Of a stretch of DNA of 35,269 nt, positions 666 to 31,349 are shown piece after piece. The DNA lies in the IMG/VR virus record IMGVR_UViG_2563366848_000003; one strand, 5' to 3'. The translations under genes and the position numbers were made by a program. Origin of the DNA: a virus. Its lineage: Duplodnaviria > Heunggongvirae > Uroviricota > Caudoviricetes. The notes under the pieces were generated by a model, which was not told the origin of the DNA, ran no database searches, and worked only from the letters and a program-made list of their open reading frames with translations. The first letter of the stretch is position 1; each line of letters starts with the position of its first letter.

Positions 666-672
666 GGACGAT

Positions 673-1413: not shown

Positions 1414-1428
1414 TCCGGGGAGTCAGCG

Positions 1429-5863: not shown

Positions 5864-5868
5864 ATCCC

Positions 5869-6612: not shown

Positions 6613-7181
6613 AAACGGGGGCTGAAGCCATCCGGGCACTGGCCACACAGCTCCCGGCGTTTCGTCAGAAACTGAGCGACGGCTGGTATCAGGTACGGAT
6701 TGCCGGGCGGGACGTCAGCACGTCCGGGTTAACGGCGCAGTTACATGAGACTCTGCCTGATGGCGCTGTGATTCATATTGTTCCCAGAGTCGCCGGGGCC
6801 AAGTCAGGTGGCGTATTCCAGATTGTCCTGGGGGCTGCCGCCATTGCCGGATCATTCTTTACCGCCGGAGCCACCCTTGCAGCATGGGGGGCAGCCATTG
6901 GGGCCGGTGGTATGACCGGCATCCTGTTTTCTCTCGGTGCCAGTATGGTGCTCGGTGGTGTGGCGCAGATGCTGGCACCGAAAGCCAGAACTCCCCGTAC
7001 ACAGACAACGGATAACGGTAAGCAGAACACCTATTTCTCCTCACTGGATAACATGGTTGCCCAGGGCAATGTTCTGCCTGTTCTGTACGGGGAAATGCGC
7101 GTGGGGTCACGCGTGGTTTCTCAGGAGATCAGCACGGCAGACGAAGGGGACGGTGGTCAGGTTGTGGTGATTGGTCGCTGA
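6510..7181 (+). CDS. I: tail tip assembly protein I
   Basis: 223-aa ORF (MAATHTLPLASPGMARICLYGDLQRFGRRIDLRVKTGAEAIRALATQLPAF...) matching lambda gpI; Gly/Ala-rich hydrophobic C-terminal half. Confidence 0.9.
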   Translation: MAATHTLPLASPGMARICLYGDLQRFGRRIDLRVKTGAEAIRALATQLPAFRQKLSDGWYQVRIAGRDVSTSGLTAQLHETLPDGAVIHIVPRVAGAKSGGVFQIVLGAAAIAGSFFTAGATLAAWGAAIGAGGMTGILFSLGASMVLGGVAQMLAPKARTPRTQTTDNGKQNTYFSSLDNMVAQGNVLPVLYGEMRVGSRVVSQEISTADEGDGGQVVVIGR

Positions 7182-7198
7182 TGCAAAATGTTTTATGT

Positions 7199-7220
7199 GA
7201 AACCGCCTGCGGGCGGTTTT
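7199..7220 (+). terminator. GC stem-loop followed by a T-run between I and J
   Basis: aaCCGCCtgcGGGCGGtttt; may attenuate transcription or serve as an RNA processing site. Confidence 0.35.
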
Positions 7221-7241
7221 ATCGTTTATGGAGCATGACGA

Positions 7242-10200
7242 ATGGGTAAAGGCAGCAGTAAGGGGCATACCCCGCGCGAAGCGAAGGACAACCTGAAGTC
7301 CACGCAGCTGCTGAGTGTGATCGATGCCATCAGCGAAGGGCCGGTTGAAGGTCCGGTGGATGGATTAAAAAGCGTGCTGCTGAACAGTACGCCGGTGCTG
7401 GACAGTGAGGGGAATACCAATATATCCGGCGTCACGGTGGTGTTCCGGGCCGGTGAGCAGGAGCAGACACCGCCGGAGGGATTTGAATCCTCCGGCTCCG
7501 AGACGGTGCTCGGTACAGAAGTGAAATATGACACGCCGATCACCCGGACCATCACGTCGGCAAACATTGACCGTCTGCGTTTTACTTTCGGCGTGCAGGC
7601 ACTGGTGGAAACCACCTCAAAGGGGGACAGGAATCCATCGGAAGTCCGCCTGCTGGTTCAGATACAACGTAACGGTGGCTGGGTGACGGAAAAAGACATC
7701 ACCATTAAGGGCAAAACCACCTCGCAGTATCTGGCCTCGGTGGTGGTGGGTAACCTGCCGCCGCGCCCGTTCAATATCCGGATGCGCAGGATGACGCCGG
7801 ACAGCACCACAGACCAGCTGCAGAACAAAACGCTCTGGTCGTCATACACCGAAATCATCGATGTGAAACAGTGCTACCCGAACACGGCACTGGTCGGCGT
7901 GCAGGTGGATTCGGAGCAGTTCGGCAGCCAGCAGGTGAGCCGTAATTATCATCTGCGCGGGCGCATTCTGCAGGTGCCGTCGAACTATAACCCGCAGACG
8001 CGGCAATACAGCGGTATCTGGGACGGAACGTTTAAGCCAGCATACAGCAACAACATGGCCTGGTGTCTGTGGGATATGCTGACCCATCCGCGCTACGGCA
8101 TGGGGAAACGTCTTGGTGCGGCGGATGTGGACAAATGGGCGCTGTATGTCATCGGCCAGCATTGCGATCAGTCGGTGCCGGACGGTTTTGGCGGCACGGA
8201 GCCGCGCATCACCTGTAATGCGTACCTGACCACACAGCGCAAGGCGTGGGATGTGCTCAGTGATTTCTGCTCTGCGATGCGCTGTATGCCGGTATGGAAC
8301 GGGCAGACGCTGACGTTCGTGCAGGACCGACCGTCGGATAAGGTGTGGACCTATAACCGCAGTAATGTGGTGATGCCGGATGATGGTGCGCCGTTCCGCT
8401 ACAGCTTCAGCGCCCTGAAGGACCGCCATAATGCCGTTGAGGTGAACTGGATTGACCCGAATAACGGCTGGGAGACGGCGACAGAGCTTGTGGAGGACAC
8501 GCAGGCCATTGCCCGTTACGGTCGTAACGTCACGAAGATGGATGCTTTTGGCTGTACCAGCCGGGGGCAGGCACACCGCGCCGGGCTGTGGCTGATTAAA
8601 ACAGAACTGCTGGAAACGCAGACCGTGGACTTCAGCGTGGGTGCCGAAGGGCTTCGCCATGTACCGGGCGATGTCATTGAAATCTGCGATGATGACTATG
8701 CCGGTATCCGCACCGGCGGGCGCGTGCTGGCGGTAAACAGCCAGACCCGGACGCTGACGCTCGACCGTGAAATCACGCTGCCATCTTCCGGCACCACGCT
8801 GATAAGCCTGGTTGACGGGCAGGGGAGTCCGGTCAGCGTGGAGGTTCAGTCCGTCACCGACGGCGTGAAGGTGAAAGTGAGCCGTGTTCCTGACGGCGTT
8901 GCTGAATACAGCGTATGGGGGCTGAAGCTGCCGACGTTGCGCCAGCGCCTGTTCCGCTGCGTGAGTATCCGTGAGAACGACGACGGCACGTATGCCATCA
9001 CCGCCGTGCAGCATGTACCGGAAAAAGAGGCCATCGTGGATAACGGGGCGCACTTTGACGGCGACCAGAGCGGCACGGTAAATGGTGTCACGCCGCCAGC
9101 GGTGCAGCACCTGACCGCAGAAGTCACCGCAGACAGCGGGGAATACCAGGTGCTGGCCCGCTGGGACACGCCGAAGGTGGTGAAGGGCGTGAGCTTCCTG
9201 CTTCGCCTGACCGTGGCAGCGGATGACGGCCGTGAGCGGCTGGTCAGCACGGCCCGGACGACGGAAACCACTTACCGCTTCACACAACTGGCTCTGGGGA
9301 ACTACAGGCTGACAGTCCGGGCAGTAAATGCGTGGGGGCAGCAGGGCGATCCGGCGTCGGTATCGTTCCGGATTGCCGCACCGGCAGCGCCGTCGCGGAT
9401 TGAGCTGACGCCGGGCTATTTTCAGATAACCGCCACGCCGCATCTTGCGGTTTATGACCCGACGGTACAGTTTGAGTTCTGGTTCTCGGAAAAACGGATT
9501 GCGGATATCAGGCAGGTTGAAACCAGCGCGCGTTATCTTGGTACGGCACTGTACTGGATAGCCGCCAGTATCAATATCAAACCGGGCCATGATTATTATT
9601 TTTACGTTCGCAGTGTGAACACCGTTGGCAAATCGGCATTCGTGGAGGCTGTCGGTCAGCCGAGTGATGATGCATCAGGCTATCTGGATTTTTTCAAAGG
9701 CGAGATAGGGAAAACCCATCTGGCTCAGGAGCTGTGGACGCAGATTGATAACGGTCAGCTTGCGCCTGACCTGGCTGAAATCAGGACGTCCATTACGGAT
9801 GTCAGCAATGAAATCACACAGACCGTCAATAAGAAACTGGAAGACCAGAGTGCAGCGATCCAGCAGATACAGAAGGTTCAGGTTGATACAAATAATAATC
9901 TGAACAGCATGTGGGCTGTGAAGCTGCAACAGATGAAGGACGGACGCCTTTATATTGCGGGTATCGGTGCCGGTATTGAGAATACGCCAGCAGGAATGCA
10001 GAGTCAGGTGCTGCTGGCGGCAGACAGGATTGCGATGATTAATCCTGCGAATGGCAACACAAAACCGATGTTTGTTGGTCAGGGTGATCAGATATTCATG
10101 AATGAAGTGTTCCTGAAGCGCCTGACGGCCCCCACCATTACCAGCGGCGGCAATCCTCCGGCCTTTTCCCTGACACCGGACGGAAAGCTGACCGCTAAAA

Positions 10201-10724
10201 ATGCGGATATCAGTGGCAGTGTGAATGCGAACTCCGGGACGCTCAACAACGTCACGATTAATGAGAACTGTCAGATTAAGGGGAAACTGTCAGCCAATCA
10301 GATTGAAGGCGATATTGTCAAAACGGTCAGCAAGTCTTTCCCCCGCACGAGCACTTATGCCAGTGGCACCATCACGGTAAGAATCAGTGATGATCAGAAA
10401 TTTGACCGGCAGGTCATGATACCGCCAGTGTTATTCCGCGGTGGTAAGCATGAGAATTTCAACAGTAATAACCAACAGTCATACTGGTATTCAACCTGCC
10501 GGTTAAGAGTGACCCGCAATGGTCAGGAGATTTTTAATCAGTCCACGACGGATGCTCAGGGCGTATTTTCCTCCGTTATAGATATGCCTGCCGGACAGGG
10601 GACGCTGACACTGACATTCACCGTATCTTCATCAGGAGCGAATAACTGGACACCAACAACCAGTATCAGCGATCTGCTGGTTGTGGTGATGAAAAAATCC
10701 ACAGCAGGTATCAGTATCAGCTGA
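7242..10724 (+). CDS. J: tail tip central fibre / host specificity protein J
   Basis: 1160-aa ORF; N-terminal ~950 aa read as lambda gpJ ([54 protein letters not shown]...). The last ~250 aa carry the receptor-binding region. Confidence 0.95.
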
Positions 10725-10741
10725 ATTTTATAACCCAGAAC

Positions 10742-10767
10742 GGGCGTCAGAAATGACGCCTTTTTTA
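10742..10767 (+). terminator. rho-independent terminator after J
   Basis: GGCGTCAgaaaTGACGCC hairpin followed by TTTTTT. Confidence 0.6.
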
Positions 10768-10790
10768 TTGCAGAAAAGCGAGAGGTAATT

Positions 10791-11390
10791 ATGCGTAAAC
10801 TTTATGCCGCCATTTTGTCCGCAGCCATCTGTCTGGCCGTATCCGGTGCGCCTGCATGGGCGTCTGAACATCAGTCCACGCTGAGCGCGGGCTATCTTCA
10901 TGCCTCGACGAACGTTTCCGGCAGCGATGATCTGAACGGGATTAACGTGAAATACCGTTATGAGTTTACGGACACGCTGGGAATGGTGACGTCATTCAGC
11001 TATGCAGGAGACAAGAATCGCCAGCTTACCCGTTACAGCGATACCCGCTGGCATGAAGATTCCGTGCGTAACCGCTGGTTCAGCGTAATGGCGGGGCCGT
11101 CTGTGCGCGTGAATGAATGGTTCAGCGCGTATGCGATGGCGGGTGTGGCTTACAGCCGTGTGTCGACTTTCTCCGGGGATTATCTCCGCGTAATTGACAA
11201 CAAGGGGAAAACGCACGACGTGCTGACCGGAAGTGATGACGGTCGCCACAGCAACACGTCTCTGGCGTGGGGAGCTGGCGTGCAGTTTAACCCGACCGAA
11301 TCCGTGGCCATTGATATTGCTTATGAAGGCTCCGGCAGTGGTGACTGGCGCACTGACGGTTTCATCGTGGGTGTCGGTTATAAATTCTGA
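10791..11390 (+). CDS. lom: Lom outer-membrane beta-barrel protein (Ail/Lom family)
   Basis: 199-aa ORF with a signal peptide ([24 protein letters not shown]), alternating beta-strand pattern and C-terminal ...GVGYKF; located after J as in lambda. SD GAGAGG upstream. Confidence 0.9.
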
Positions 11391-11416
11391 TTAGCCAGGT
11401 AACACAGTGTTATGAC

Positions 11417-11443
11417 AGCCCGCCGGTTCAGGCGGGCTTTTTT
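11417..11443 (+). terminator. rho-independent terminator after lom
   Basis: AGCCCGCCggttcaGGCGGGCT followed by TTTTT. Confidence 0.6.
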
Positions 11444-11454
11444 GTGGGGGGAAT

Positions 11455-14349
11455 ATGGCAGTACGGATTTCAGGTGTACTGAAAGATGGCGCAGGTAAGC
11501 CGATACAAAACTGCACCATTCAGCTAAAGGCCAGGCGCAACAGCACCACGGTGGTGGTGAACACAGTGGCCTCAGAAAACCCGGATGAAGCCGGGCGTTA
11601 CACAATGGACGTCGAGTATGGTCAGTACAGCGTCAGTCTGTTGGTGGAGGGATTCCCGCCGTCACACGCCGGGATTATCACCGTATATGAGGACTCAAAG
11701 CCGGGCACACTGAATGATTTCCTCGGTGCAATGACGGAGGATGATGTCCGGCCAGAGGCACTGCGCCGTTTTGAACTGATGGTGGAAGAGGTGGCGCGTA
11801 ACGCGTCCGCAGTGGCACAGAACACGGCAGCCGCGAAGAAGTCAGCCGGCGATGCCGGCACATCTGCCCGTGAGGCGGCAACCCATGCGACTGATGCTGC
11901 AGGCTCAGCACGCGCAGCCAGCACGTCAGCCGGACAGGCCGCTTCGTCGGCTCAGTCAGCGTCTTCCAGCGCAGGAACGGCATCAGCAAAGGCCACTGAA
12001 GCATCAAAAAGTGCTGCCGCTGCAGAGTCCTCAAAAAGCGCGGCGGCCACCAGTGCCGCTGCGGCAAAAACGTCAGAAACGAATGCGGCAGCGTCACAAC
12101 AATCAGCAGCCACTTCAGCATCCACCGCAACCACGAAAGCGTCAGAAGCTGCCACCTCAGCCCGGGATGCGTCGGCTTCAAAAGAGGCGGCAAAATCATC
12201 AGAAACGAGCGCAGCCTCGAGCGCCAGCAGCGCAGCTTCCTCGGCAACGGCGACAGCAAATTCTGCGAAGGCGGCAAAAACGTCCGAGACGAACGCCAAG
12301 GCTTCTGAAACGGCAGCGGGACAGAGTGCCTCAGCTGCGGCAGGCTCAAAAACAGCGGCTGCGTCGTCTGCCAGTGCCGCGTCAACAAGTGCCGGGCAGG
12401 CCTCAGCCAGTGCCACCGCCGCCGGAAAATCGGCAGAAAGTGCTGCATCGTCCGCTTCAACAGCCACAACGAAGGCTGGCGAAGCCGCTGTACAGGCCAG
12501 CGCAGCAGCGAGGTCTGCTTCCGCAGCGAAGACATCCGAAACGAATGCGAAAGCGTCGGAAACCCGTGCAGAATCCTCAAAAACGGCAGCCGCATCGTCC
12601 GCCAGTTCGGCAGCGTCATCGGCATCATCTGCGTCTGCTTCAAAAGATGAGGCGACCAGACAGGCGTCAGCAGCGAAGGGCAGCGCCACGACGGCATCCA
12701 CGAAAGCAACAGAGGCGGCAGGCAGTGCGACGGCAGCATCTCAGAGCAAAACTGCTGCTGAATCCGCTGCGACCCGTGCGGAAGCTGCTGCTGATCGTGC
12801 TGAAGAGATTGCCGGTGCAGTTGCGATGGAAGACGCAAGCCTTACAACTAAAGGTGTTGTGAAACTTAGCAGTGCTGTTGATAGCACCAGTGAATCGCTG
12901 GCCGCAACGCCAAAAGCAGTTAAAGCAGCCAATGACAATGCGAATAGCAGGGTGCCATCTAACCGAAAAGTTAACGGAAAAGCACTGACTGCGGATATAA
13001 CATTAACGCCGAAAGATATTGGTACTTTAAATTCAGTAACGATGTCTTTCTCTGGCGGGGCTGGGTGGTTCAAACTGGCTACGGTTACCATGCCACAAGC
13101 GAGTTCCATCGTTTACATCGCATTGATTGGTGGCGCTGGTTACAACGTCGGTTCCCCACATCAGGCAGGCATTTCAGAACTGGTTCTACGAGCAGGCAAT
13201 GGAAACCCCAAAGGAATTACCGGGGCTTTGTGGAAGCGTACAGCCGTCGGATTAACGAATTTCGCCTGGATCAACACATCCGGCGATACATATGATATTT
13301 ACGTTGAGATTGGCAATTATGCGACTCGTGTAAATATCCATTGGGATTGTACTGCAAATGCGACAGTTTCTATTTATACATCGCCAACATATTCAGCGAG
13401 TAAGCCTTCCAGCGTTACCGATGGTGTTGTTTATACGATGTATAGCACACATCAGAAACCGACGCCGTTAGATATTGGAGCACTGCCAACAACCGGAGGA
13501 ACAGTTTCAGGTCCGTTGTCTGTTACAGGTGGATTAACTGGTTCATTGAATGGTAATGCAAGTACAGCCACGAAATTGCAGACGGCAAGATCTATCGGTG
13601 GAGTTGTTTTCGACGGTTCTGCAAATATTAACCTTCCAGGTGTAAACACTACGGGTAATCAGAACACCACTGGTAATGCTGCAACTGCCACAAAACTACA
13701 GACTGCACGGAATATCAACGGCGTTCCGTTTGACGGCACGAAGGATATTACGCTTACGCCTAAAGATCTGGATGCCTACAGCAAAAGCGAAGTACAGAGC
13801 GCACTGGCGGGCAAACAACCGCTGGACAATACGCTGACTAATTTGAGTGGAAAGGATGTAGCTGGTCTTCTCGCATACCTTGGTTTGGGCGAAACGATAA
13901 ATAAAGCCTCCGGAGCTATGCAGAAATCGGCTAATGGAGCTGATATTTCTGATGTATCAGCCTTCCGAAATGCGCTCCAGTTAGGGACCGCCGCAACACG
14001 AGATGTTGGAGCAGATAATGCCTCGAAGTTACTGGATTTAGACAGCTTCAGGTCAATGATGTCAGGGAATGGCTACATCTACATTCCATGCATTGCGACG
14101 ACAGGAAACCCGGTGAAACTTATGTTGCAGTGGGGAACGGTGGCAACACAAAAGGGAGCTGATGCTGGATATGCCTTACCATTTGCTTTTCCCTATGCAG
14201 GCTTATTTGCGACCGGAAACCGTGGAACATCTGGCTACAATGCCGCGATGAATGTGCGTATTGCCAGCAGAACGCATATCAGTATTCAGAACTGGTCGCC
14301 ATCCGGAGAGGGCACCGAAGATTGTTGTTTTATCGCGCTGGGGTATTAA
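11455..14349 (+). CDS. stf: side tail fibre protein Stf (extended, 964 aa)
   Basis: N-terminus MAVRISGVLKDGAGKPIQNCTIQLKARRNSTTVVVNTVASENPDEAGRY as in lambda Stf; ~300-aa Ala/Ser/Thr-rich region; two phage tail fibre repeat motifs (ATKLQTAR-x-I-x-GV-x-FDG); distinct C-terminal domain ending ...FIALGY. Confidence 0.9.
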   Translation: MAVRISGVLKDGAGKPIQNCTIQLKARRNSTTVVVNTVASENPDEAGRYTMDVEYGQYSVSLLVEGFPPSHAGIITVYEDSKPGTLNDFLGAMTEDDVRPEALRRFELMVEEVARNASAVAQNTAAAKKSAGDAGTSAREAATHATDAAGSARAASTSAGQAASSAQSASSSAGTASAKATEASKSAAAAESSKSAAATSAAAAKTSETNAAASQQSAATSASTATTKASEAATSARDASASKEAAKSSETSAASSASSAASSATATANSAKAAKTSETNAKASETAAGQSASAAAGSKTAAASSASAASTSAGQASASATAAGKSAESAASSASTATTKAGEAAVQASAAARSASAAKTSETNAKASETRAESSKTAAASSASSAASSASSASASKDEATRQASAAKGSATTASTKATEAAGSATAASQSKTAAESAATRAEAAADRAEEIAGAVAMEDASLTTKGVVKLSSAVDSTSESLAATPKAVKAANDNANSRVPSNRKVNGKALTADITLTPKDIGTLNSVTMSFSGGAGWFKLATVTMPQASSIVYIALIGGAGYNVGSPHQAGISELVLRAGNGNPKGITGALWKRTAVGLTNFAWINTSGDTYDIYVEIGNYATRVNIHWDCTANATVSIYTSPTYSASKPSSVTDGVVYTMYSTHQKPTPLDIGALPTTGGTVSGPLSVTGGLTGSLNGNASTATKLQTARSIGGVVFDGSANINLPGVNTTGNQNTTGNAATATKLQTARNINGVPFDGTKDITLTPKDLDAYSKSEVQSALAGKQPLDNTLTNLSGKDVAGLLAYLGLGETINKASGAMQKSANGADISDVSAFRNALQLGTAATRDVGADNASKLLDLDSFRSMMSGNGYIYIPCIATTGNPVKLMLQWGTVATQKGADAGYALPFAFPYAGLFATGNRGTSGYNAAMNVRIASRTHISIQNWSPSGEGTEDCCFIALGY
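11850..12800 (+). repeat. intragenic low-complexity Ala/Ser/Thr coding repeats within stf
   Basis: Reiterated peptide units (AAKTSETNAKASE, SAASSASSAASSA) and matching DNA motifs such as gcggcaaaaacgtc[ac]ga[ag]acgaa at ~12061 and ~12274; similar unit at ~12523. These drive the long shadow ORFs on both strands (11678-12838, 11852-12862, 11952-12701). Confidence 0.8.
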
Positions 14350-14351
14350 GA

Positions 14352-14762
14352 ATGAATAAATTTTATAAAGGCTCTTTCTATCCGAAAGCACTAAAAGAGG
14401 TATATATCAGCGCCGGTTCATGGCCTGAAAATGGCGTTGATGTTGATGATGAAACAATGGCAATTTACACAGGCGTAGCGCCACAAGGCAAAACGCTGGG
14501 GGCTGATAAAAATGGTAATCCTGCGTGGATTGATATCCCGCCACTCTCCGCTGAACAACAGATTATTCAGGCTGAACAGAAAAGAACGGTATTGCGTTCT
14601 ATGGCTGATAAGGAAATAGCCTGGAGACAGGATGCTTTTGATGCGGAAATCGCGACGGCAGAAGAAACCGCCGCGTTATCTGAATGGAAAAAATACCGGG
14701 TCTTGCTGATGCGCGTTGATACAGCAAAACCCGTATGGCCTGTCAATCCGCAGGATATTTAA
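14352..14762 (+). CDS. tfa: tail fibre assembly protein Tfa
   Basis: ATG at 14352 directly after the stf stop (MNKFYKGSFYPKALKEVY...); conserved Tfa C-terminal motif ETAALSEWKKYRVLLMRVDTAKPVWPVNP. The tabulated start at 14322 overlaps stf and is less likely. Confidence 0.85.
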   Translation: MNKFYKGSFYPKALKEVYISAGSWPENGVDVDDETMAIYTGVAPQGKTLGADKNGNPAWIDIPPLSAEQQIIQAEQKRTVLRSMADKEIAWRQDAFDAEIATAEETAALSEWKKYRVLLMRVDTAKPVWPVNPQDI

Positions 14763-20465: not shown

Positions 20466-21175
20466 TATGCTGAAAGCATTTTTTAGCTTAATTTTTATAC
20501 TGCGCGTTGACTTATCACCCTATCATATATGATTTTTAGGTGTTGCATAGACTGGTTTTATATCAGGGGCTTAGGTTGTATGTGGCGTCACAGAATCACT
20601 AATCATTGAACTTTGTACATGTAACAGTCCGGTTAAATAATATATAATGGGTTGTTAAGTTGGCTCTCTGATTCCTGATGCCCCAAGGACGCGCGTCATT
20701 GCGTGCCAGATTAACTTTTCGTCGGGCACAGTGCTATCGGCAATTATTTCCTCAGCCTCTTTCCCGCATAGGTCTTGGCGCATCCATTTTCTTGCTATGA
20801 AATCTCCAGCCGGTCAGACTGAAAGTATAGAAGAGAATATGCGAATCGCTGTTCCGGTGTTTCTGGGAGAGCTTATGTCGGAGTAATTCCCCGGTAATTG
20901 AATCTCTTTTGCTCGCTCATAACAGACATTCACTACAGTTATGGTAGAAAGTATGTATGCTGATTGGGGAAAGTGTGAAAGAAAAGAAGACTGCTGCGCT
21001 GTTTGTCGTCACGTTTATCTTCATTGGCTATGCAAGTCATAATACAAGGTGGGACAAAACTGAGACACATAAGGCCTCACAATGGCTTGCAAGGCTTTAC
21101 ATGTTTTGATGTGGTGGGACGTGTGAGCACAGTGTTGATGGGGTAATACTTTGAATTAGAAGCGGATTCTTATAA

Positions 21176-21220
21176 TTCGTAATGCGAAGGTCGTAGGTTC
21201 GACTCCTATTATCGGCACCA
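21176..21220 (+). other. 45-bp 3' fragment of tRNA-Thr(CGU) (thrW-like): attachment-site remnant
   Basis: attcgtaatgcgaaggtcgtaggttcgactcctattatcggcacca contains the anticodon loop (CGT), T-arm GGTTCGACTCC and the 3' acceptor with CCA, but the preceding 30 nt do not form the D-arm or 5' acceptor, so it is not a complete tRNA gene. Confidence 0.75.
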
Positions 21221-21383
21221 TCTCAACTTCCTCAAACGTCCATATTTGTCCATAAATACCCTGATTTATAAAGACTTTTCTGCTTTTAAGTCCATCTTTG
21301 TCCGTAACCATCCAGTAGAATCCGATACGGAATGTGTATAGGATTGTGTATATGTTTCTGTTCTGTCCTGGATTCCTATACAC

Positions 21384-22553
21384 ATGCCTTTAAACGATAT
21401 GCAGATTCGTCGCGCTAAGCCTGAAGAGAAACCCTATACGCTTGGGGATGGTCAAGGCTTGTCATTACTTATAGAACCTAATGGGAGCAAGAGCTGGCGG
21501 TTTCGCTATCGCTATGCCGGTAAACCCAAAATGATCTCGCTTGGTGTTTACCCAACGATCACCCTTGCCGATGCTCGTTCCCGTCGTGACGAAGCCCGCA
21601 AATTGGTCGCCGAAGGAAAGAATCCGAGTGAGGTTCGAAAAGAGCAGAAGATTGCTTTGCAAACCGAGTCTGAAAGCGCGTTCGAAAAGATAGCGACAGA
21701 GTGGCACCAGATGAAATCTGCCAAATGGTCGGCCGGTTATGCATCAGACATCATGGAAGCTTTTCAGAACGATATTTTCCCTTATGTAGGTAAAAGGCCA
21801 ATTGGCGAAATAAAACCGCTAGAATTGCTTAATGTGCTGCGTAAAATTGAAAAACGAGGTGCGTTGGAGAAAATGCGGAAAGTGCGACAGCGTTGCTCGG
21901 AGGTTTTCCGTTATGCCATTGCTACAGGTAGAGCCGAGTTTAATCCTGCGGCAGATCTCTCAAGTGCCCTCGAAGTGCATCAATCCAATCATTTCCCGTT
22001 CCTTAAAGCTGATGAGTTACCTGATTTTTTGCGTGCTCTAGACAGTTACACAGGGAGTCGGCTTGTCCTTATTGCTACGAAGTTACTGATGATTACGGGC
22101 GTAAGAACCATTGAATTACGTGCAGCTTTATGGTCGGAATTTGATCTGGATAACGCTATTTGGGAAATACCAGCAGAAAGGATGAAAATGCGTAGGGCAC
22201 ACCTTGTGCCACTATCGACTCAAGCGTTAGATTTACTTAATGAACTCAAAGCGATGACAGGAAACTACCGTTATGTTTTTCCTGGACGAAATGATCCGAA
22301 TAAGCCAATGAGTGAGGCAAGTGTAAACCAAGTAATCAAACGCATTGGCTTTGGTGGCAAGGTTACAGGGCACGGATTCAGACATTCAATGTCTACTATT
22401 TTGCATGAGCAAGGATTTGAATCGAGTTGGATAGAGATGCAATTAGCTCATGTTGATAAAAACAGTATCCGAGGCACTTATAACCATGCTCAGTATTTTG
22501 ATAAACGCAGAGTTATGATGCAGTGGTATGCTGATTATGTACAGGGGAAATAA
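21384..22553 (+). CDS. int: P4-type tyrosine integrase
   Basis: 389-aa ORF with the P4-type N-terminal domain (IRRAKPEEKPYTLGDGQGLSLLIEPNGSKSWRFRYRYAGKPK) and a C-terminal catalytic domain (HGFRHSMSTILHEQGF ... HVDKNSIRGTYNHAQY); lies 164 bp downstream of the tRNA fragment. Confidence 0.95.
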   Translation: MPLNDMQIRRAKPEEKPYTLGDGQGLSLLIEPNGSKSWRFRYRYAGKPKMISLGVYPTITLADARSRRDEARKLVAEGKNPSEVRKEQKIALQTESESAFEKIATEWHQMKSAKWSAGYASDIMEAFQNDIFPYVGKRPIGEIKPLELLNVLRKIEKRGALEKMRKVRQRCSEVFRYAIATGRAEFNPAADLSSALEVHQSNHFPFLKADELPDFLRALDSYTGSRLVLIATKLLMITGVRTIELRAALWSEFDLDNAIWEIPAERMKMRRAHLVPLSTQALDLLNELKAMTGNYRYVFPGRNDPNKPMSEASVNQVIKRIGFGGKVTGHGFRHSMSTILHEQGFESSWIEMQLAHVDKNSIRGTYNHAQYFDKRRVMMQWYADYVQGK

Positions 22554-24053
22554 ATGCAAACTTCGAGAGCTATTAATAAAAATGTCGGGGGAAATGACTC
22601 TGAAAAATATCTTTCTAAGCTGTGTGAAAGAACTTTTTTAAGCTTGTGGAGTTATCCAAATGTTTATACTGATGAAGGAAAAAAAACGGCGTCGGGAGAT
22701 GGGAAGGAACTCTGTGATCTTCTAGTTGTATTTGAAAATCATGTCATAATATTTTCCGATAAAGATATTTCGTTTAAGGATTCAGGGGATTTAAAAGTTG
22801 ATTGGGGGCGTTGGGTTAAAAGGGCTGTTATTAAATCCGCAGTTCAACTTTATGGTGCCGAGTCATCATTAAAAGAGAGACCCGGTAGGTTATTTCTTGA
22901 TGCTAAGTGTAATGTCCCTTTTCCAATTAAAGTGCCAAAGTGTGACGAAATTATCGTTCACCGAATTGCTGTTGCAAAGAATGCATCAAAAAAATTCCAA
23001 GAGCATTCTGGCGGTTCTGGGAGTTTGATTATATGTCCGCGCATAGTGGGAAACCAACATTTTGATACTCCGTTTATGATCGGTCAGCCCATTGCTGACA
23101 AGCCTTATGTGCATGTTTTTGATGATATTGCTTTAGATATTATACTTTCTGAACTCGATACAATTGCTGATTTTATAGATTATCTTAGTAAGAAGGAAGA
23201 ATTTATTGCTTCAGGAGGACTAAACTCGGCAGCGGGAGAGGAAGAACTTTTAGCATGGTACTATATAAATGCTAAAGATGGGCGTGAGCCGGGGTTTTAT
23301 ATAGAGAAAGGAGTATCAGCTTTGATTGTTGAGGGGGCCTATGAATCTCTTAAAAACCTTCCTCAGTTTATTAGAGGGAAAGAACTAAATTCTAATTCTT
23401 ATTTTTGGGATGCCTGTATAGAAAATTTTGCGAAACATATGCTTAGTGGGACAATATTGTCCGAAGGGGATTTTTCATTTGATGAGATGACTCGTGGTCT
23501 AAGAATTATGGCATCCGAGACGAGATTTTCAAGGCGTATACTATCAAATGCAATAATTGAAAAAGTCACCTCCATCCCTCATGGGCAAAGAGGTGTTAGA
23601 GTTTTGGTCTCTCCCAGTAACAGCGATAATGGGTATGTTTGGCTAGTGGTTCCGGTGCCAGAATGTTGCACATCATATGATGACTATAGAAAATATCGTA
23701 AAGATACTCTCTCTGTTTACTGTGCTTCAGCAAAGCTACTTTTCCCGGATATGAAATATATAGTTGGAGTTGCCACAGAACCGATGGGGGGGAATGGAGG
23801 GGAAGATATGGTGTTTATTGATTCAACTCAGTGGACAGAGGATGACTACGAAAGAGCTCGAAAAGATAGAGATGAATTTAAAGCTTTACTTCCGGATAAT
23901 ATTAAAAGAACTGATGATCACGATTATCAATTCCCTATTCTTCCTGGAGACTATCCTGAAAAAGAAACTTTAAGGGTTGAAAAGAATAGTAAGGCTAGAA
24001 TAAAACGAATTAAAAAGGCGCAAAAAAAAGCCCGTAGAAATAACAGAAAATGA
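22554..24053 (+). CDS. hypothetical protein (499 aa), cargo at the integrase-proximal position; possible nuclease-like N-terminal region, basic C-terminal tail
   Basis: ATG immediately follows the int stop (TAAATG) with SD AGGGGA; AT-rich. N-terminal segment ELCDLLVVFENHVIIFSDKD is loosely reminiscent of a PD-(D/E)xK core (unverified); C-terminus KNSKARIKRIKKAQKKARRNNRK is highly basic. Confidence 0.7.
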   Translation: MQTSRAINKNVGGNDSEKYLSKLCERTFLSLWSYPNVYTDEGKKTASGDGKELCDLLVVFENHVIIFSDKDISFKDSGDLKVDWGRWVKRAVIKSAVQLYGAESSLKERPGRLFLDAKCNVPFPIKVPKCDEIIVHRIAVAKNASKKFQEHSGGSGSLIICPRIVGNQHFDTPFMIGQPIADKPYVHVFDDIALDIILSELDTIADFIDYLSKKEEFIASGGLNSAAGEEELLAWYYINAKDGREPGFYIEKGVSALIVEGAYESLKNLPQFIRGKELNSNSYFWDACIENFAKHMLSGTILSEGDFSFDEMTRGLRIMASETRFSRRILSNAIIEKVTSIPHGQRGVRVLVSPSNSDNGYVWLVVPVPECCTSYDDYRKYRKDTLSVYCASAKLLFPDMKYIVGVATEPMGGNGGEDMVFIDSTQWTEDDYERARKDRDEFKALLPDNIKRTDDHDYQFPILPGDYPEKETLRVEKNSKARIKRIKKAQKKARRNNRK

Positions 24054-24091
24054 GTTATGATCAAATCAAGGGCCTTTTTAAGGCCTTTGAA

Positions 24092-24874
24092 TCAATCTTT
24101 GGCGTGTGATTTAAATTTAAATGATATTTTTCTCTTGGTATTTCTTAAGGATTTTGAAATTCGCCATTTTAAATTGAATAAAGTATCCAATAGCTTTTCT
24201 GAGTTCTGCTTATTTAGTAGTCTGTGTTCTTGTCTTATCATAAGGAATATTTCAAGGTATGGGTCGTCAATTTTTTCTTCCAGTTCTTCACAAGAGTAGC
24301 TGTTGACACGTTCAAGAGCGATATATTCCATCCTTATCTCATTTGGTTCCCTTAAACTTGTTTTTTCCCATTCTAATCTAATTGGCTTACTAAAAAGGGA
24401 TATGTTCTCCTTAATATGTGCCATAACACGTCTAAAACGATTGTTAAATTCTTCATTATCAGTATGCATAACTGGTGATTGATTTCCTAATAATGTTGAA
24501 CTTTTTTCTCTTTGGAATTTGTAATATTCCTCTGATACTTTTTTGCTAAAGCTGGCTTGATCTGATTTATTCTTGAAGCTTATATGTTCATAACTATCCG
24601 GACCATATATTTGTTCCATCCAGTGCAACTGACTAAATTGATTGACGGCTTGTTCTAAATCTTTATCTTCTGATGTGTATGTTTTCTGTGATTTTATTTT
24701 GTAGTCGAAAAGTAGTAAGTCGCAAACATCGAAGTAGATTTTGTCATAAGTTCTTAGACGTTCTATTTTTCTATTGTATTTTGACTGGCGAATGGTATTT
24801 AAAAATCCTAGGCAGGATATGATAAAACCACCTATAGAAATATATAAAGAAATTGAAGTGTTATCCTGCACCAA
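24092..24874 (-). CDS. hypothetical membrane-anchored protein (260 aa) with an N-terminal transmembrane helix
   Basis: N-terminus MVQDNTSISLYISIGGFIISCLGFLNTI is a predicted TM helix followed by a charged domain of unknown function. Convergent with the 499-aa gene (38-bp gap); AT-rich. Confidence 0.65.
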   Translation of the reverse strand: MVQDNTSISLYISIGGFIISCLGFLNTIRQSKYNRKIERLRTYDKIYFDVCDLLLFDYKIKSQKTYTSEDKDLEQAVNQFSQLHWMEQIYGPDSYEHISFKNKSDQASFSKKVSEEYYKFQREKSSTLLGNQSPVMHTDNEEFNNRFRRVMAHIKENISLFSKPIRLEWEKTSLREPNEIRMEYIALERVNSYSCEELEEKIDDPYLEIFLMIRQEHRLLNKQNSEKLLDTLFNLKWRISKSLRNTKRKISFKFKSHAKD

Positions 24875-24980
24875 CTTTCTCCCCTCTGAAAAATAGAATT
24901 CTTAAACCTAAAATTAATTGCATCTTCGGATAAGCTTTTCTATCTCAAAAAATTTAAATGGTCAACTATATTGGTGCGCA

Positions 24981-24999
24981 ATGCTCTCCCCGCCACGCC
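24981..24999 (-). other. P2/P4-type cos-like site
   Basis: Reverse complement GGCGTGGCGGGGAGAGCAT matches the P2/P4 19-nt cohesive end GGCGAGGCGGGGAAAGCAC (recalled from memory) at 16 of 19 positions; located between the integrase-side cargo and psu, where cos sits in integrated P4. Confidence 0.5.
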
Positions 25000-25004
25000 T
25001 GCCC
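24987..25004. repeat. 18-bp direct repeat ccccgccacgcctgcccg, copy 1 (overlaps the cos-like site)
   Basis: Identical 18-mer found again at 25433-25450. Confidence 0.8.
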
Positions 25005-25432
25005 GTTTAAGAAGTCGCTTTTAATGCCGTTGCAACGGCGTACTCTGGCCGCGCCGCGAATGGCGCTAGCAGGGATTACAGCGACAGGAAAACACCTGCA
25101 AAACCATGCCTCGTTTGGATGCATTGCTTAAATCGGGAAAAATGACGGTATTTAGGAGGGGCAGGTTACTGAGCGGTAGTTCGGCGCGGTTATGGAGGTA
25201 AATTACACTCTATTCATTCGTGAAATTTTTAAAATTTTTTCACCCATCAAGCAGCGTCAAGCTTGGAATACTTGCTACCACGCTGTTCTGCACTAACCTG
25301 CTGATCTTCGCCCTTGTTCCTTATGTTTCAACAGCGCACCGCAGAGGCGAGATTCCCCCCGTCTTGACCATGCCAGCTCGTTGAAATTTGAAAAGATAAG
25401 CACCATTTAACATCTTAGCGCGCGCTCGTAGC

Positions 25433-25450
25433 CCCGCCACGCCTGCCCGC
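25433..25450. repeat. 18-bp direct repeat ccccgccacgcctgcccg, copy 2
   Basis: Identical to 24987-25004; the flanking sequence diverges from the cos consensus. Confidence 0.8.
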
Positions 25451-25602
25451 TTTATGTAGTGGTTTTCATGCAGGTGCATGAACGGTTCTCATCCATGCCG
25501 CGTGCGGTCTGAGAGGTAAAAATACCAGTACATAAAGTCATGCGGTTTCATGCAGCATAGCCATGCACTCTCAGCATCAACGGGAAAGTCAGAAAGTTGG
25601 CA

Positions 25603-25627
25603 TAAAAAACCGGCATAAAAGCCGGTT
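25603..25627 (-). terminator. rho-independent terminator downstream of the delta-like gene
   Basis: On the minus strand: AACCGGCttttatGCCGGTT followed by TTTTT, about 20 nt after the delta stop. Confidence 0.55.
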
Positions 25628-25646
25628 CGAGGATTGCTTTGAGCCG

Positions 25647-26475: not shown

Positions 26476-26569
26476 CAGCTTTGCTGCGTATTACCGTGAA
26501 GGAGATCGGTGAGTAACATCGATGGAGATCGGTTCGTGTCACTTTCACAGAACCGTTTTTAAATTACCT

Positions 26570-27319
26570 TCACTGATCTCCTTCGGTCAACGGAGATTGT
26601 ATTTTCCGCATTGATTCTCCTTTAAGTTCGATCTTGATACTGCCATGAACCAGTCGATCTAGGATGGCATCCGCATGTGTGGAGTCTCCGATCATTTTGT
26701 ACCAGTTTTCCACCGGCAACTGGCTCACTACGATGATTGAGCCTCGTTGGTACATCAGATCCACTATTTCCAGCAGGTCGCTACGCTGTTCTGATGAGAG
26801 AGGTTCCAGCCCCCAGTCATCCAGAAGCAGCAGATCGCTATTATTCAGCCTGGTCAAAAGTTTGCTGTATCTTCCATCAGCATGCCCCTGATAGCACTGT
26901 TCCATCAGCGCTTTAAGGCGATAATAGTAGACCTTGTATCCCTGTCGGCAGGCATTATGACCAAGTGCACATGCCAGGAACGTTTTACCGCTGCCGGTGG
27001 CCCCGGTCAGTAAAATATTTTGTTTCAGGGTTAACCAGTTTCCCTGACTGAGTGAACGGATGAGGGCCCTGTCCAGCCCTCTATTGTTACGATAATCCAG
27101 CTTTGATAACTCAGCATTAAGTCTGAACCGTGCATGTTTGATCAGACGCTCTGCCTTCCTGTTTTCACGGCAGGTTAGTTCTTCTGCTGTCAGTAATGAC
27201 AGGCGTTCTTCGAAGCCCAGCTCCTGGTATGTGCCCGGCTGAGCAAGTTGCTTTTTAAGCGCATCACGGAAGCCGGTGAGTTTAAGTGCGGTCAGTTGTT
27301 CGTAAAGATGATTCATCAT
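26570..27319 (-). CDS. istB: IS21-family transposition helper ATPase IstB
   Basis: 249 aa with Walker A GATGSGKT and Walker B LLLLDDWG, IstB/DnaC-like. Confidence 0.93.
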   Translation of the reverse strand: MMNHLYEQLTALKLTGFRDALKKQLAQPGTYQELGFEERLSLLTAEELTCRENRKAERLIKHARFRLNAELSKLDYRNNRGLDRALIRSLSQGNWLTLKQNILLTGATGSGKTFLACALGHNACRQGYKVYYYRLKALMEQCYQGHADGRYSKLLTRLNNSDLLLLDDWGLEPLSSEQRSDLLEIVDLMYQRGSIIVVSQLPVENWYKMIGDSTHADAILDRLVHGSIKIELKGESMRKIQSPLTEGDQ

Positions 27320-27330
27320 TGGATCCCGTA

Positions 27331-28872
27331 TCAGTGGTAATACTCACTGCCGCGTACGTTTTCGTGTTCCATCGTGGATAACAGATCTGGTTTTGGATCC
27401 TGAACAGGTTGTTTATCCAGACCTTTTTCCAGGATCGATTTAATACCTGACAGACGCCATACCTTTGTTTTCAGAGCTCTTGCACATGCTGCATTAAGTC
27501 TGGCTTTACTGTATTTTTTATGAAGGTTCAGGAGTCCAAGGCAGAAGCGATAGCTTTGTTCCGGATGTGGACGAGAGTTCAGTATATGAAGCACATAACT
27601 ATGAGTTTCACTGCCTATGTGCCCCGCCCATTCCAGAAGACGCTCTGGCGTCCAGGTGGCATGCTGTCGATGAGCTTCAGGCATGTGCTCGTTGCGGGTA
27701 CTGTAGCCATAAGTACGCTTGCGCGGGTGCACAGCAACCTCCTGCCCCTGATTGAAGAGTCTTACCAGTTCTCCGGAGATCCATGCTTCCAGTTGCTGGC
27801 CTAACAGCGAACATGGAACCGAGTAGTAATGTTTGTCGATTTCCACGTGGTAATCGGCATGAACTCTGACTTTCTTCACCAGGGTGTAACTGTAACTGGC
27901 TTCAGGAAGAGGCTTCAGTGCGGGTTTATCAAGCTGGATGAAGAGTTCTGCACGTGAATAACCCAACTTCTGCATTATTTTGTTATTCAGTCTTTCCAGC
28001 AACTCCCGAATGCGCTGATTAAGCGATGCAAGGCTGTAGAAGATCTCATGCCTGATTCGGGCCATGATCCAGCGTTCAACAACCTGAACGCCAACTTCAG
28101 CTTTGGCTTTATCTTTCGGTTTACGTGGCCGCGCAGGCAAAACTGCGACATTATAATGCTCAAGCATCTGCTGGTAGGTAGGGTTAACGTCAGGATCATA
28201 CTTACATGCCCTGGATGTGGCGCTTTTCAGATTGTCCGGAACAACAAGTTCAGGAACGCCACCCAACCACTGGAAGCAGCGAACATGACTCATCACCCAG
28301 TCTTCAAGCTGCTGAGACCAGGTGGCCTCTGCCCATGTGTAACTTGATGCCCCGAGAACAGCTACGATGACCTGAGCAGTTCTTATTTCTCCGGTCTCAG
28401 GGTCGGTAACGCCAACGGTAGGTCCACAGTAATCAACGAAAAGTTTTTCGCCAGCTTTATGTACCTGACGCATTGATGGTGAAGTGGTTTTGAGCCATTC
28501 ACGGTACATCCGGCAGTAATGGTTATAGCTGTAAAAACCGCCTGGATTACGCTCACAGTATTCTTCCCAGAGTAGCTGCAGCGTCACGCATTTATTACGC
28601 AGTTCCCGGTGTACTGTAGCCCAGTCAGGCAGAGAGTGCTTCTTCATCTTAACCTGGGTCTGAAGGAACGCATGTTTTAGTTTTGTATCATCCCATCCTG
28701 TAGGTAAGGGCCACTGCTTTATGCCAAGTTGAGCCGCCCGATTAGCATATCTGGATACAACGGAAGGGGAGATTGCAAGACTACGACCAATTTGTCGATG
28801 GCTGAGTCCAACACCGTATTTAAGCCTAAGAATTTCTTTAAGTTTTCTCATAGAAATTGGAACTGTTGGCAT
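27331..28872 (-). CDS. istA: IS21-family transposase IstA
   Basis: 513 aa with an N-terminal HTH (LKYGVGLSHRQIGRSLAISPSVVSRY) and a DDE core; located 11 nt upstream of istB. Confidence 0.93.
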   Translation of the reverse strand: MPTVPISMRKLKEILRLKYGVGLSHRQIGRSLAISPSVVSRYANRAAQLGIKQWPLPTGWDDTKLKHAFLQTQVKMKKHSLPDWATVHRELRNKCVTLQLLWEEYCERNPGGFYSYNHYCRMYREWLKTTSPSMRQVHKAGEKLFVDYCGPTVGVTDPETGEIRTAQVIVAVLGASSYTWAEATWSQQLEDWVMSHVRCFQWLGGVPELVVPDNLKSATSRACKYDPDVNPTYQQMLEHYNVAVLPARPRKPKDKAKAEVGVQVVERWIMARIRHEIFYSLASLNQRIRELLERLNNKIMQKLGYSRAELFIQLDKPALKPLPEASYSYTLVKKVRVHADYHVEIDKHYYSVPCSLLGQQLEAWISGELVRLFNQGQEVAVHPRKRTYGYSTRNEHMPEAHRQHATWTPERLLEWAGHIGSETHSYVLHILNSRPHPEQSYRFCLGLLNLHKKYSKARLNAACARALKTKVWRLSGIKSILEKGLDKQPVQDPKPDLLSTMEHENVRGSEYYH

Positions 28873-29050
28873 AGGTATCCTTTACCGGAATGGCAAAAGA
28901 TACAGATCAACACACCTGTGAAGTTCCAATAACATTGATGGAGATCACTGAATAACAAAATGAGTCAAAAGTGATCTCCATCGATGTTATTCAGCGATCT
29001 GTTCAAATGTTATTACCCGATCTCGATGGAAGTTATTGAGTGATCTCCTT

Positions 29051-29812
29051 TCATGAAAATACGCAGCTTTGCCCCTTCTTCGCTTTTTCACGCTGTTTTT
29101 GTATGCGGATTTGCGCCGCCGGGCTGGGGGCGTTCTGAATATCCTGATAGGCACTATTATCAGCAAGTACACCAATTTTATTCAGGAAAGGGTCACTCTG
29201 CAGAGAGGCATTCTGTTTCAACGCCGGATTAGTGATTGAAGAAGTAATGAAATCCCGCAATAGCGTTTCAGGATCATTCACAGAATGGACAACACCAATT
29301 ACAGAGCTGGCACTTCTCCCTTTTGTCACTTTGAGAAGGCTTAAAAGCTGGATAAGGGTTTGACCATGCTGCTTCATAAAATCATGCCAAAGCTGGTTAA
29401 CATGGGTTTCGATAAGATTATCATGTGCCTGAATGTAACCACGGGCCAGTTCCGCCGTTTTCCATGGGAGATACTCATTCTCTCCGGCATGGGCCGCAAG
29501 CAGATCATCAAACTCGTCGAGTGTTTCACGCCCCAGGGCAATCTCAGCCCTTAGTTTTTTCATTTTCGGCGTTACCTGTCCCTGGTTTTCATGAAACATC
29601 TGACGCCATTCTTCATTTTGCGCCTTTGCCTCCGTTTCCGTTTCTACACGGCGTTTACGGATTGTTGCGAGCATCGCAGCAGCATCAATTTGTTTGCGAC
29701 GGGCTTCCGTCCAGGCTGATTTGGCAGCATTCACTTTTTCAAGCGCCTGTTGTGTCGCAGCAGGGATAGAAATATCAGCAGTCGATTTATTGCTCTGGTC
29801 TGGGATAGTCAT
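29051..29812 (-). CDS. sid: Sid-like capsid size determination protein, C-terminus altered by the IS21 insertion
   Basis: N-terminus MTIPDQSNKSTADISIPAATQQALEKVNAAKSAW resembles P4 Sid; about 250 aa, coiled-coil rich. The last 4 codons and stop (CVFS*) are read from the IS end. Confidence 0.6.
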   Translation of the reverse strand: MTIPDQSNKSTADISIPAATQQALEKVNAAKSAWTEARRKQIDAAAMLATIRKRRVETETEAKAQNEEWRQMFHENQGQVTPKMKKLRAEIALGRETLDEFDDLLAAHAGENEYLPWKTAELARGYIQAHDNLIETHVNQLWHDFMKQHGQTLIQLLSLLKVTKGRSASSVIGVVHSVNDPETLLRDFITSSITNPALKQNASLQSDPFLNKIGVLADNSAYQDIQNAPSPAAQIRIQKQREKAKKGQSCVFS

Positions 29813-30990: not shown

Positions 30991-31117
30991 TGATACCTGA
31001 ATACAATAAATACCTTTTTTCAGGCTTGCTTACTGTCGTCATTTCCAGGTATAGTTTTTCCGCTGTCGCAAAATCGGCAGCCGGAATTGGCGTTCCGCGA
31101 AACTCAATGGCGACACC

Positions 31118-31141
31118 AGACGCGCCAGGCGTCTTTTTTTT
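31118..31141 (+). terminator. rho-independent terminator after alpA
   Basis: AGACGCgccagGCGTCT followed by TTTTTTTT. Confidence 0.55.
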
Positions 31142-31349
31142 CGTCGTAGCTCAGGCACACCCATTTTCCGGGCTGTGGTGTTTGTGTGTACACCGTAGTT
31201 CTTTCGAGATAATGGCAGTCCGGGCGGGGCAGCCTTCGGGCTGGCCGGTATCCATTGAGGCCGGTTACGCCAACCCCGTTCGGGCTGCCACCAGTGAAAT
31301 TGGCGTTTCCGGTGGTAGCAATAACCGCTACTCAATGGAGGCTGCCATC

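Follow-up and report, generated by a model that had tools for sequence, protein, structure and literature searches.

The window analysed here is a stretch of 35,269 nucleotides whose host is E. coli; its left flank, up to position ~21226, is 99.9% identical to many strains of this species. Beyond this flank, the features are found in the order int, a low-GC cargo, a first cos-like site (cos1), a spacer, a second cos-like site (cos2), a hairpin, an ogr/delta-like gene, psu, an IS21-family element, sid, a C4/isrK region and the alpha primase gene (Table 1). The element contains the core genes by which P4-like satellites are recognised, with Pfam domains for integrase, Psu, Sid (Psu-like), Ogr_Delta, primase/D5, Ash and DUF5375. 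Rfam matches to isrK, c4-a1b1 and the C4 antisense RNA, which overlap an ORF of the Ash family, correspond to the cI-type RNA immunity region of P4. A scan for promoters and terminators in the region returned no more candidates than expected by chance.

Table 1. Features of the window discussed in the text (cohesive-end positions refer to the 19-nt end of each cos site)
Feature	Position	Strand	Remarks
Lambda-like tail module	1-14762		tape measure, tail-tip proteins, J-like tip attachment protein, tail fibre
int	21384-22553	+	
Low-GC cargo, int-cos hotspot	22554-24874		boundary to conserved DNA 5-15 nt past cos1
Cargo ORF, 499 aa	22554-24053	+	
Cargo ORF, 260 aa	24092-24874	-	
cos1, 19-nt cohesive-end homologue GGCGTGGCGGGGAGAGCAT	24981-24999	-	GCAT class, 'AGAGCAT' variant
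18-mer copy 1	24988-25005	+	12 nt of the cos1 end and 6 nt of the cos1 flank
cos1 P4-type right-end flank, degenerate	25000-25139	-	one of four TGCAT motifs (-124, -111, -101, -29) left
Degenerate P4-type psu 3' remnant	25140-25235 (about)	-	in-frame stops and an indel
Spacer	25236-25410		found in dual-cos elements only; no sign of coding or structured RNA
cos2, 19-nt cohesive-end homologue GGCGTGGCGGGGCTACGAG	25425-25443	-	CGAG / Fels-2 class; predicted functional cos
18-mer copy 2	25432-25449	+	
cos2 proximal flank (...CATGCACCTGCATGAAAACCACTACATAAAGCGGGCA)	25444-25488	-	helper-like; TGCAT at -29 intact
cos2 distal block (GTGCATGGCTATGCTGCATGAAACCGCATGAC)	25537-25570	-	fixed distance -123, CGAG-class specific
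Intrinsic-terminator-like hairpin and U-run	25603-25628	-	-16.5 kcal/mol, z = -2.6; downstream of the ogr/delta-like gene, upstream of cos2
Ogr/Delta-like zinc-finger gene, 96 aa	25647-25937	-	PF04606, E=4e-16; final late gene ahead of cos2
psu, 190 aa	25903-26475	-	PF07455, E=2e-38
IS21-family element	26499-29050		multi-repeat terminal inverted repeats
istB	26570-27319		
istA	27331-28872		
sid	29051-29812	-	
isrK, c4-a1b1, C4 antisense RNA (Rfam)	31049-31295		overlap Ash-family ORF

The late genes do not follow the canonical order of P4. In P4 the order is sid-delta-psu-cos, with a delta gene of 166 aa, and here it is sid, the IS21-family insertion, psu, ogr (96 aa) and cos2. The succession psu-ogr is also present in E. 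coli S21, LR-45 and Res13, and relatives (loci L007-L009) often carry an extra gene encoding a Sid/Psu-like protein of ~270 aa between ogr and cos. The non-canonical order is that of a sub-lineage of P4-like satellites and gives no ground to exclude the element from the family; the sid-psu-ogr-cos satellites are a distinct P4-like sub-lineage that uses a cos site of the class found in phage Fels-2, as described below. The IS21-family element sits exactly between the stop of sid (29051) and the start of psu (26475). It is probably polar on the expression of psu and ogr, and the element of the window, carrying this insertion, may not be mobilisable whichever cos site is intact.

Two further parts of the window are of interest with respect to the satellite. 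The two cargo ORFs have a GC content of 30-40% and are present as the same pair in E. coli B379 and in a metagenome contig (L011); neither had a match in Pfam or PADLOC, and they are candidates for an uncharacterised anti-phage system. At the other end of the window, the tail module is part of a neighbouring siphovirus prophage that is lambda-like and provides no P2-like helper. The possibility of a helper resident in the window was therefore rejected, as the prophage at 1-14.7 kb is lambda-like and not P2-like. The tail module and the satellite are separated by a small island that contains DUF262, ParA and recombinase genes.

The earlier note had pointed to a P2/P4-like cohesive end on the minus strand at 24981-24999 and to an 18-mer that recurs nearby within different flanks. 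The end, GGCGTGGCGGGGAGAGCAT, indeed matches the P4 cohesive end GGCGAGGCGGGGAAAGCAC, verified to span bases 1-19 of record NC_001609 of P4, at 16 of 19 positions (3 mismatches), and it lies where cos does in P4, with the low-GC cargo on one side and the psu/ogr late genes on the other. The recurrence of the 18-mer, CCCCGCCACGCCTGCCCG, is also exact and the DNA just outside the two copies does differ; the coordinates of the second copy were one base off (25432-25449, not 25433-25450) and the two copies are 444 bp apart instead of 446. The 18-mer is present exactly twice in the 35-kb window, both copies being oriented to psu as cos is in P4. Allowing up to 3 mismatches revealed no further site in the window, for 0.02 matches expected by chance.

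The homology of cos1 to P4 extends well beyond the cohesive end. The P4 cos site was described by Ziermann and Calendar in 1990, as cited in later papers (PMC9122126, PMC3931495), and the P2/P4 ends finish with ...aaagcac (PMC3931495). Positions 24976-25142 of the window align with the circularised P4 junction (11482-11624 plus 1-24) over 170 bp at 71% identity (E=6e-19). The alignment of the flanks that had been proposed as a check thus identifies cos1 as a true homologue of P4 cos. The cos1 end is identical to that of five single-cos P4-type satellites (L019, L072, L103, L107 and L127), in which the order is delta-psu-cos and Psu is 62-99% identical to that of P4. Homology to L019 extends 262 nt upstream of cos1, so that window positions 24976-25229 enter the last ~90 nt of the psu ORF of L019; in the window this segment is a remnant.

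Three features of P2-family cos sites were considered. Firstly, the 19-nt G+C-rich cohesive end, of the form GGCG(A/T)GGCGGGG followed by 7 nt, is present both in cos1 (GGCGTGGCGGGGAGAGCAT) and in cos2 (GGCGTGGCGGGGCTACGAG). Secondly, a conserved region of ~55 bp comprises TGCAT at -29, AAGCGGGC at -8 to -1 and (T/C)GCGCGC after the end. Over this region cos2 shows no violation of positions conserved at 95% or more and reaches a position weight matrix (PWM) score of 117.3, whereas cos1 shows three violations, GGCAT for TGCAT at -29 (25024-25028), AAAC for AAGC and GCGCAC for GCGCGC, with a PWM score of 67.7. This failure of cos1 is not absolute: taken one at a time, two of these violations are also seen in single-cos satellites that are presumably functional (AAACGGGCA in L009, GCGCAC in L082). 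Thirdly, sites carry a distal feature, an array of TGCAT motifs at -124, -111 and -101 in the class with GCAx ends and a block at -123 in the class with CGAG ends, which was defined here by comparison and is no established criterion. In cos2, TGCAT is present at -124, -111 and -29 together with the -123 block; in cos1 only the -124 motif is retained, compared to four out of four motifs in eight single-cos P4-type satellites.

For the second copy of the 18-mer, a duplicated or decoy cos or a site bound by some protein had been suggested; this copy belongs instead to a complete cos site of another class with a helper-like flank of ~125 bp. The minus strand across cos2 reads ...CATGCACCTGCATGAAAACCACTACATAAAGCGGGCA, then the end GGCGTGGCGGGGCTACGAG, then CGCGCGC. 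This end is identical to those of 6 P2-like phages and 10 satellites among the loci surveyed, and is a single base away from the SEN8/Fels-2 cos ggcgtggcggggatacgag, reported for the Fels-2-like phage SEN8 (PMC5427200); the cos of SEN4/5, ggcgaggcgggggaacgag, also finishes with ...CGAG, and that of PSP3 is ggcgtggcggggaaagcat (PMC5261728). The cos2 stretch is 89-94% identical over 68-81 bp to Fels-2, whose cos region was inspected directly, to RE2010 and to many P2-like phages of Klebsiella, Salmonella and Yersinia. A 64-bp part of cos2 also aligns to the P4 cos junction, but the flank differs.

The two sites of the window were set against a survey of 120 IMG/VR loci carrying the core motif, together with E. 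coli and metagenome loci; the IMG/VR loci are only presumably functional. As these loci were picked by an exact 18-nt pattern, the invariance of positions -6 to +12 in the survey is forced by the sampling. Two classes were found. Ends in ...ACGAG are followed by CGCGCGC and preceded by the flank TGCATGAAAAC, and the large terminase subunit of the phages concerned is 83-100% identical to gpP of a Fels-2-like E. coli prophage. Ends in ...AGCA[CT] are followed by TGCGCGC and usually preceded by the flank TGCATTAAAAC, and gpP is then only 60-70% identical to the Fels-2-like gpP. The gpP identity ranges of the two classes do not overlap, with the single exception of the atypical locus L018 (end ...GTACGAC, gpP 60%). 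The distal block, a 19-nt motif GCATG.CTAT.CTGCATGA located exactly 123 nt upstream of the end, is present in 30 of 36 phages of the CGAG class and in all 14 satellite sites of this class, window cos2 included, and is absent from all 51 phages of the GCAx class. Satellites of the P4 type carry AAAGCAC or AGAGCAT ends and those of the sid-psu-ogr type CTACGAG ends; P2-like prophages of both classes are present in E. coli. Combined, these comparisons show that enterobacterial P2-family cos sites fall into two classes tracking the terminase clade, with the satellites in matching classes. Since the backbone of the window's element belongs to the sid-psu-ogr group with CGAG ends, cos2 is the native site and cos1 the foreign one.

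Two observations from the survey concern the composition of satellite ends. The ...AGAGCAT end was found in satellites only, with no occurrence at the ~90 phage sites sampled, where the ends of the GCAx class are AAAGCAC, AAAGCAT, ATAGCAT or ATAGCAC; the cohesive end of a satellite therefore does not have to equal that of any helper. Locus L009 (E. coli Res13-Sevr-PER07-33) has a single cos site in which a GCAT-class end, GGCGTGGCGGGGGTAGCAT, is joined to a CGAG-class flank with the -123 block. It is a natural chimera, and could show which part of cos sets the specificity for the helper.

The tandem arrangement of the two sites is not peculiar to the window. The order cos1-spacer-cos2 with a spacing of 444-446 bp was found in E. 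coli PCP06022 and 700462, in five metagenome contigs and in one IMG/VR locus (L082), and E. coli B379 has the window's element in a form truncated by IS26 after 25293. The arrangement is rare, with 3 occurrences in 5,426 complete E. coli genomes; a scan for the dual-cos pattern gave no match among GTDB species representatives and no exact match in IMG/VR, L082 being recovered by blast. These elements form about six lineages that are 70-84% identical over the spacer and cos1 and that carry unrelated cargo (Hachiman-like, reverse transcriptase or of unknown type). Between lineages with unrelated cargo, homology ends 5-15 nt past cos1, and the int genes on the other side are 80-85% identical. The late region is damaged in all four E. 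coli dual-cos elements, the window's included, the other lesions being an IS100 in ogr (PCP06022), a psu pseudogene (700462) and the IS26 truncation (B379).

The spacer itself matched, among complete E. coli genomes, only PCP06022, 700462 and B379. A coding function was considered and rejected, the only ORF (25220-25384) being broken by a 1-nt indel with respect to the 99%-identical contigs L011 and L012; searching the spacer by tblastn with the Psu, Delta, Sid and Gop proteins of P4 and of the window detected nothing. A structured RNA was likewise rejected, as RNAalifold on five lineages gave no covariation support on either strand (terms +3.5 and +0.6), and Rfam had no match between 24100 and 31000.

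Contig L011 (OGZI01002510.1) deserves separate mention. It is 98.8% identical to the window over 21175-25570, that is, from int through the cargo, cos1 and the spacer to cos2, and only ~68% identical over sid, psu and ogr; the part lying right of cos2 is similar to the 700462 lineage, and position 13 of its cos2 end is A rather than C. The comparison shows a recent exchange of a whole arm with a breakpoint at or just right of cos2. With late genes at ~68% identity against 98.8% elsewhere, whole modules have therefore been exchanged around cos2.

To what extent the two sites are maintained was assessed from the mean pairwise identity among five dual-cos lineages, five or six being the number of independent lineages available. 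For cos2, the identity is 1.00 in the cohesive end, 0.88 in the proximal flank and 0.91 in the distal block, and falls to 0.66 in the DNA between these two blocks. For cos1, it is 0.89 in the end, and 0.77 and 0.72 in the flanks, the same as the background of 0.76 given by the spacer; on the cargo side it is 0.44. The sites were also scored with PWMs built from 64 non-redundant GCAx sites and 58 CGAG sites. All cos2 sites lie within their class, with scores of 98-120 (5th percentile of the CGAG class 89.5, median 121) and no violation of positions conserved at 95% or more. All cos1 sites score below the lowest bona fide GCAx site (71.2; median 105.8), with 67.7 in the window lineage, 61.2 in L004, 47.7 in L014, 45.3 in L015 and -15 in L005 and L013. 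The three violations of the window's cos1 fall outside positions -6 to +12, and the mutations of the core in L004, L005 and L014 are judged against a sample biased at these positions.

The fate of the TGCAT motifs is consistent with these scores. All four motifs (-124, -111, -101 and -29) are present in 8 of 8 single-cos P4-type satellites, P4 included, and of 113 non-redundant sites of both classes only one lacks the -29 motif. In cos1, the -29 and -101 motifs are gone from every dual-cos lineage. The substitutions at -29 are specific to each lineage, with GGCAT in the window, TGCAA in L004, AGCAT in L005 and L014, and AGAGT in L015; differing substitutions of this kind are what independent decay under relaxed selection would produce.

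Taken together, the results lead us to propose, with a probability of roughly 0.7, that cos2 is the working packaging site, for helpers of the Fels-2 class, and that cos1 is a decaying relic of recombination with a P4-type satellite, located at the edge of the cargo hotspot. The site at 25425-25443, with its flank up to ~25570, would mimic a Fels-2-class cos through its ...CTACGAG end, the TGCAT at -29 and the block at -123. The gpP/gpM terminase of a Fels-2-class helper would recognise the proximal flank and the distal block, the conserved motifs being the predicted recognition elements, and would introduce staggered nicks generating the 19-nt end GGCGTGGCGGGGCTACGAG as a 5' overhang. The satellite genome would then be packaged with cos1 as an internal passenger that is not cleaved. 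The earlier expectation that the element retains a packaging site would accordingly apply, for a cos region of an integrated P4-like satellite is present; the comparative evidence favours cos2 rather than cos1 as the functional site.

As to the origin of the arrangement, an ancestor probably recombined with a P4-type satellite, cos1 arriving together with ~140 bp of P4-type flank and a 3' fragment of psu. The psu fragment beside the cos1 flank and the sharing of the spacer indicate one ancestral event, joining a sid-psu-ogr-type satellite at or just past its cos2 to a P4-type segment that extended from inside psu over cos1 and the cargo up to int. From then on, cos1 would no longer have been selected for recognition by a terminase and would decay, persisting as the edge of the variable-cargo hotspot. 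We also reasoned that a single terminase cutting both sites could initiate packaging at one cos and terminate it at the other, which would generate genomes deprived of the 444-bp segment, with ends matching at 12 of 19 positions only; such mismatched ends would entail selection against two active sites for one enzyme, which is consistent with one of the sites decaying. Several observations go against cos1 being a relic. Its core (6 nt of flank and the 19-nt end) is perfect in the window lineage, the identity of the core across lineages is somewhat above the background (0.89 vs 0.76), and the PWM score of the window's cos1 is just under the lowest bona fide value (67.7 vs 71.2). Moreover, the change of cargo at its edge could reflect a past or present activity of cos1 in cos-linked exchange.

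These observations are also those on which other interpretations can be built. If both sites were functional, the satellite would have a wider range of helpers, with cos1 cut by terminases of the P2/186/PSP3 class (GCAx) and cos2 by those of the Fels-2 class (CGAG). The classes of the two sites follow two different terminase clades, prophages of both classes are available in E. coli, and the tandem has kept its fixed spacing of 444-446 bp through ~25% of sequence divergence. In addition, both the window lineage and L015 have an intact cos1 core, and the window's cos1 is only marginally under the bona fide range, with two of its three deviations known singly from L009 and L082. We nevertheless regard this interpretation as unlikely. 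In every lineage cos1 has lost the near-universal -29 TGCAT and lacks 2-3 of the 4 motifs found at fixed positions; its substitutions are lineage-specific, as predicted by neutral decay; its flank is conserved no better than the spacer; its PWM scores are under those of all 64 bona fide GCAx sites; and the G-rich core itself is mutated in L004, L005, L013 and L014. If the interpretation were nevertheless true, satellite-helper specificity in Enterobacteria would be determined by, and could be read from, the class of the cos end. A conceptual analogue is provided by satellites of the SaPIbov5 type, which are reported by Quiles-Puchalt et al. (2014, PNAS) to carry two packaging signals for two kinds of helpers. 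They constitute a different satellite family in which a cos-type and a pac-type mechanism are combined, and here one of the two sites appears degenerate.

A second interpretation, which we hold to be quite unlikely as an account of the arrangement, is that cos1 is dead for packaging and has been kept or exapted as a recombination landing pad for the exchange of defence cargo with P4-type satellites. The ~30-bp core of cos1, identical to that of P4-type satellites, and int on the opposite side would provide the homology for cassette exchange, and P4-type satellites would be by far the more abundant partners. The abrupt end of homology 5-15 nt past cos1 between lineages with unrelated cargo, with int genes still 80-85% identical, argues for such a role, as does the conservation of the 19-nt cos1 end above that of its surroundings, and cos-linked exchange at the hotspot has been proposed by Rousset et al. 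(PMC9122126). The excess of conservation, however, concerns 19 nt in five lineages, and the exchange could go back to a period in which cos1 was still active. A role as landing pad adds to the interpretation of cos1 as a relic and is compatible with it.

An assignment of roles in which cos1 is the functional site and the second copy a duplicated or decoy cos, or an unrelated site bound by a protein, is very improbable. In its favour, cos1 adjoins the cargo directly, like the cos of P4, and has an end resembling that of P4; against it, cos2 is no copy of cos1, since its flanks and the last 7 nt of its end are of a different class, and it is perfectly conserved and constitutes the sole cos of related single-cos satellites such as S21 and LR-45. 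Finally, an 18-mer pair due to chance or to a common genomic repeat with no link to packaging can practically be discarded: nothing counts for it, two matches were observed for 0.02 expected, both copies lie within extended alignments to known cos regions, P4 cos included, and elsewhere the motif, which is the conserved core shared by P2-family cos sites, adjoins portal/terminase genes or psu/ogr genes.

The cos site is the only cis element that a P4-like satellite needs to steal the capsid of its helper. With cos2 as the probable packaging site and cos1 as its decaying neighbour, the class of the cos site offers a handle, at the level of sequence, on the helper dependence of a satellite, and the consensus of the P4 end would pick the wrong cos in elements of this kind. 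The locus also documents that two satellite lineages recombined where cos meets the hotspot, a finding relevant to the shuffling of defence cargo. The cos sites of P2 and P4, the conserved region of ~55 bp and the cos-adjacent hotspot are already known; among the papers searched, none describes a P4-like satellite with tandem cos sites that belong to two classes, a class-specific distal block or a match between satellite cos class and terminase clade.

Comparison with known systems places each site next to its closest relatives. With P4 cos, cos1 shares 16 of 19 nt of the end and ~140 bp of right-end flank, at the same position and in the same orientation between psu and cargo/int. P4, however, has one cos only, which follows psu at 164 bp and in which four TGCAT motifs occupy fixed positions, whereas cos1 keeps one of the four, follows only a fragment of psu and lies 444 bp downstream of a cos of the other class. 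With P2-like phages of the Fels-2 class (Fels-2, NC_010463; SEN8; the E. coli ECONIH5 prophage), cos2 has in common the class of the end, at one base of difference, the proximal flank and the -123 distal block. In these phages cos is situated between the portal gene Q and the accessory/replication region, whereas cos2 follows ogr/delta in a satellite, and the cos2 end has C at position 13, a base shared by all satellites of the class and a minority of its phages. The defence hotspot described by Rousset et al. (2022, PMC9122126) adjoins cos in P4-like satellites and P2-like phages, and the change of cargo 5-15 nt past cos1 fits this idea of a cos-adjacent hotspot: there too, the interval from cos to int is occupied by variable cargo that is directly bounded by a cos site. 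That description assumes one cos per element, whereas here the boundary lies at the decayed cos1 and the conserved cos2 is found 444 bp inside. The single-cos satellites of the sid-psu-ogr type (E. coli S21 and LR-45; L028, L059 and L104) have the same cos2 sequence, flank and position after the late genes; in these the hotspot begins ~20 nt past the end, and the spacer, the psu remnant and cos1 are absent.
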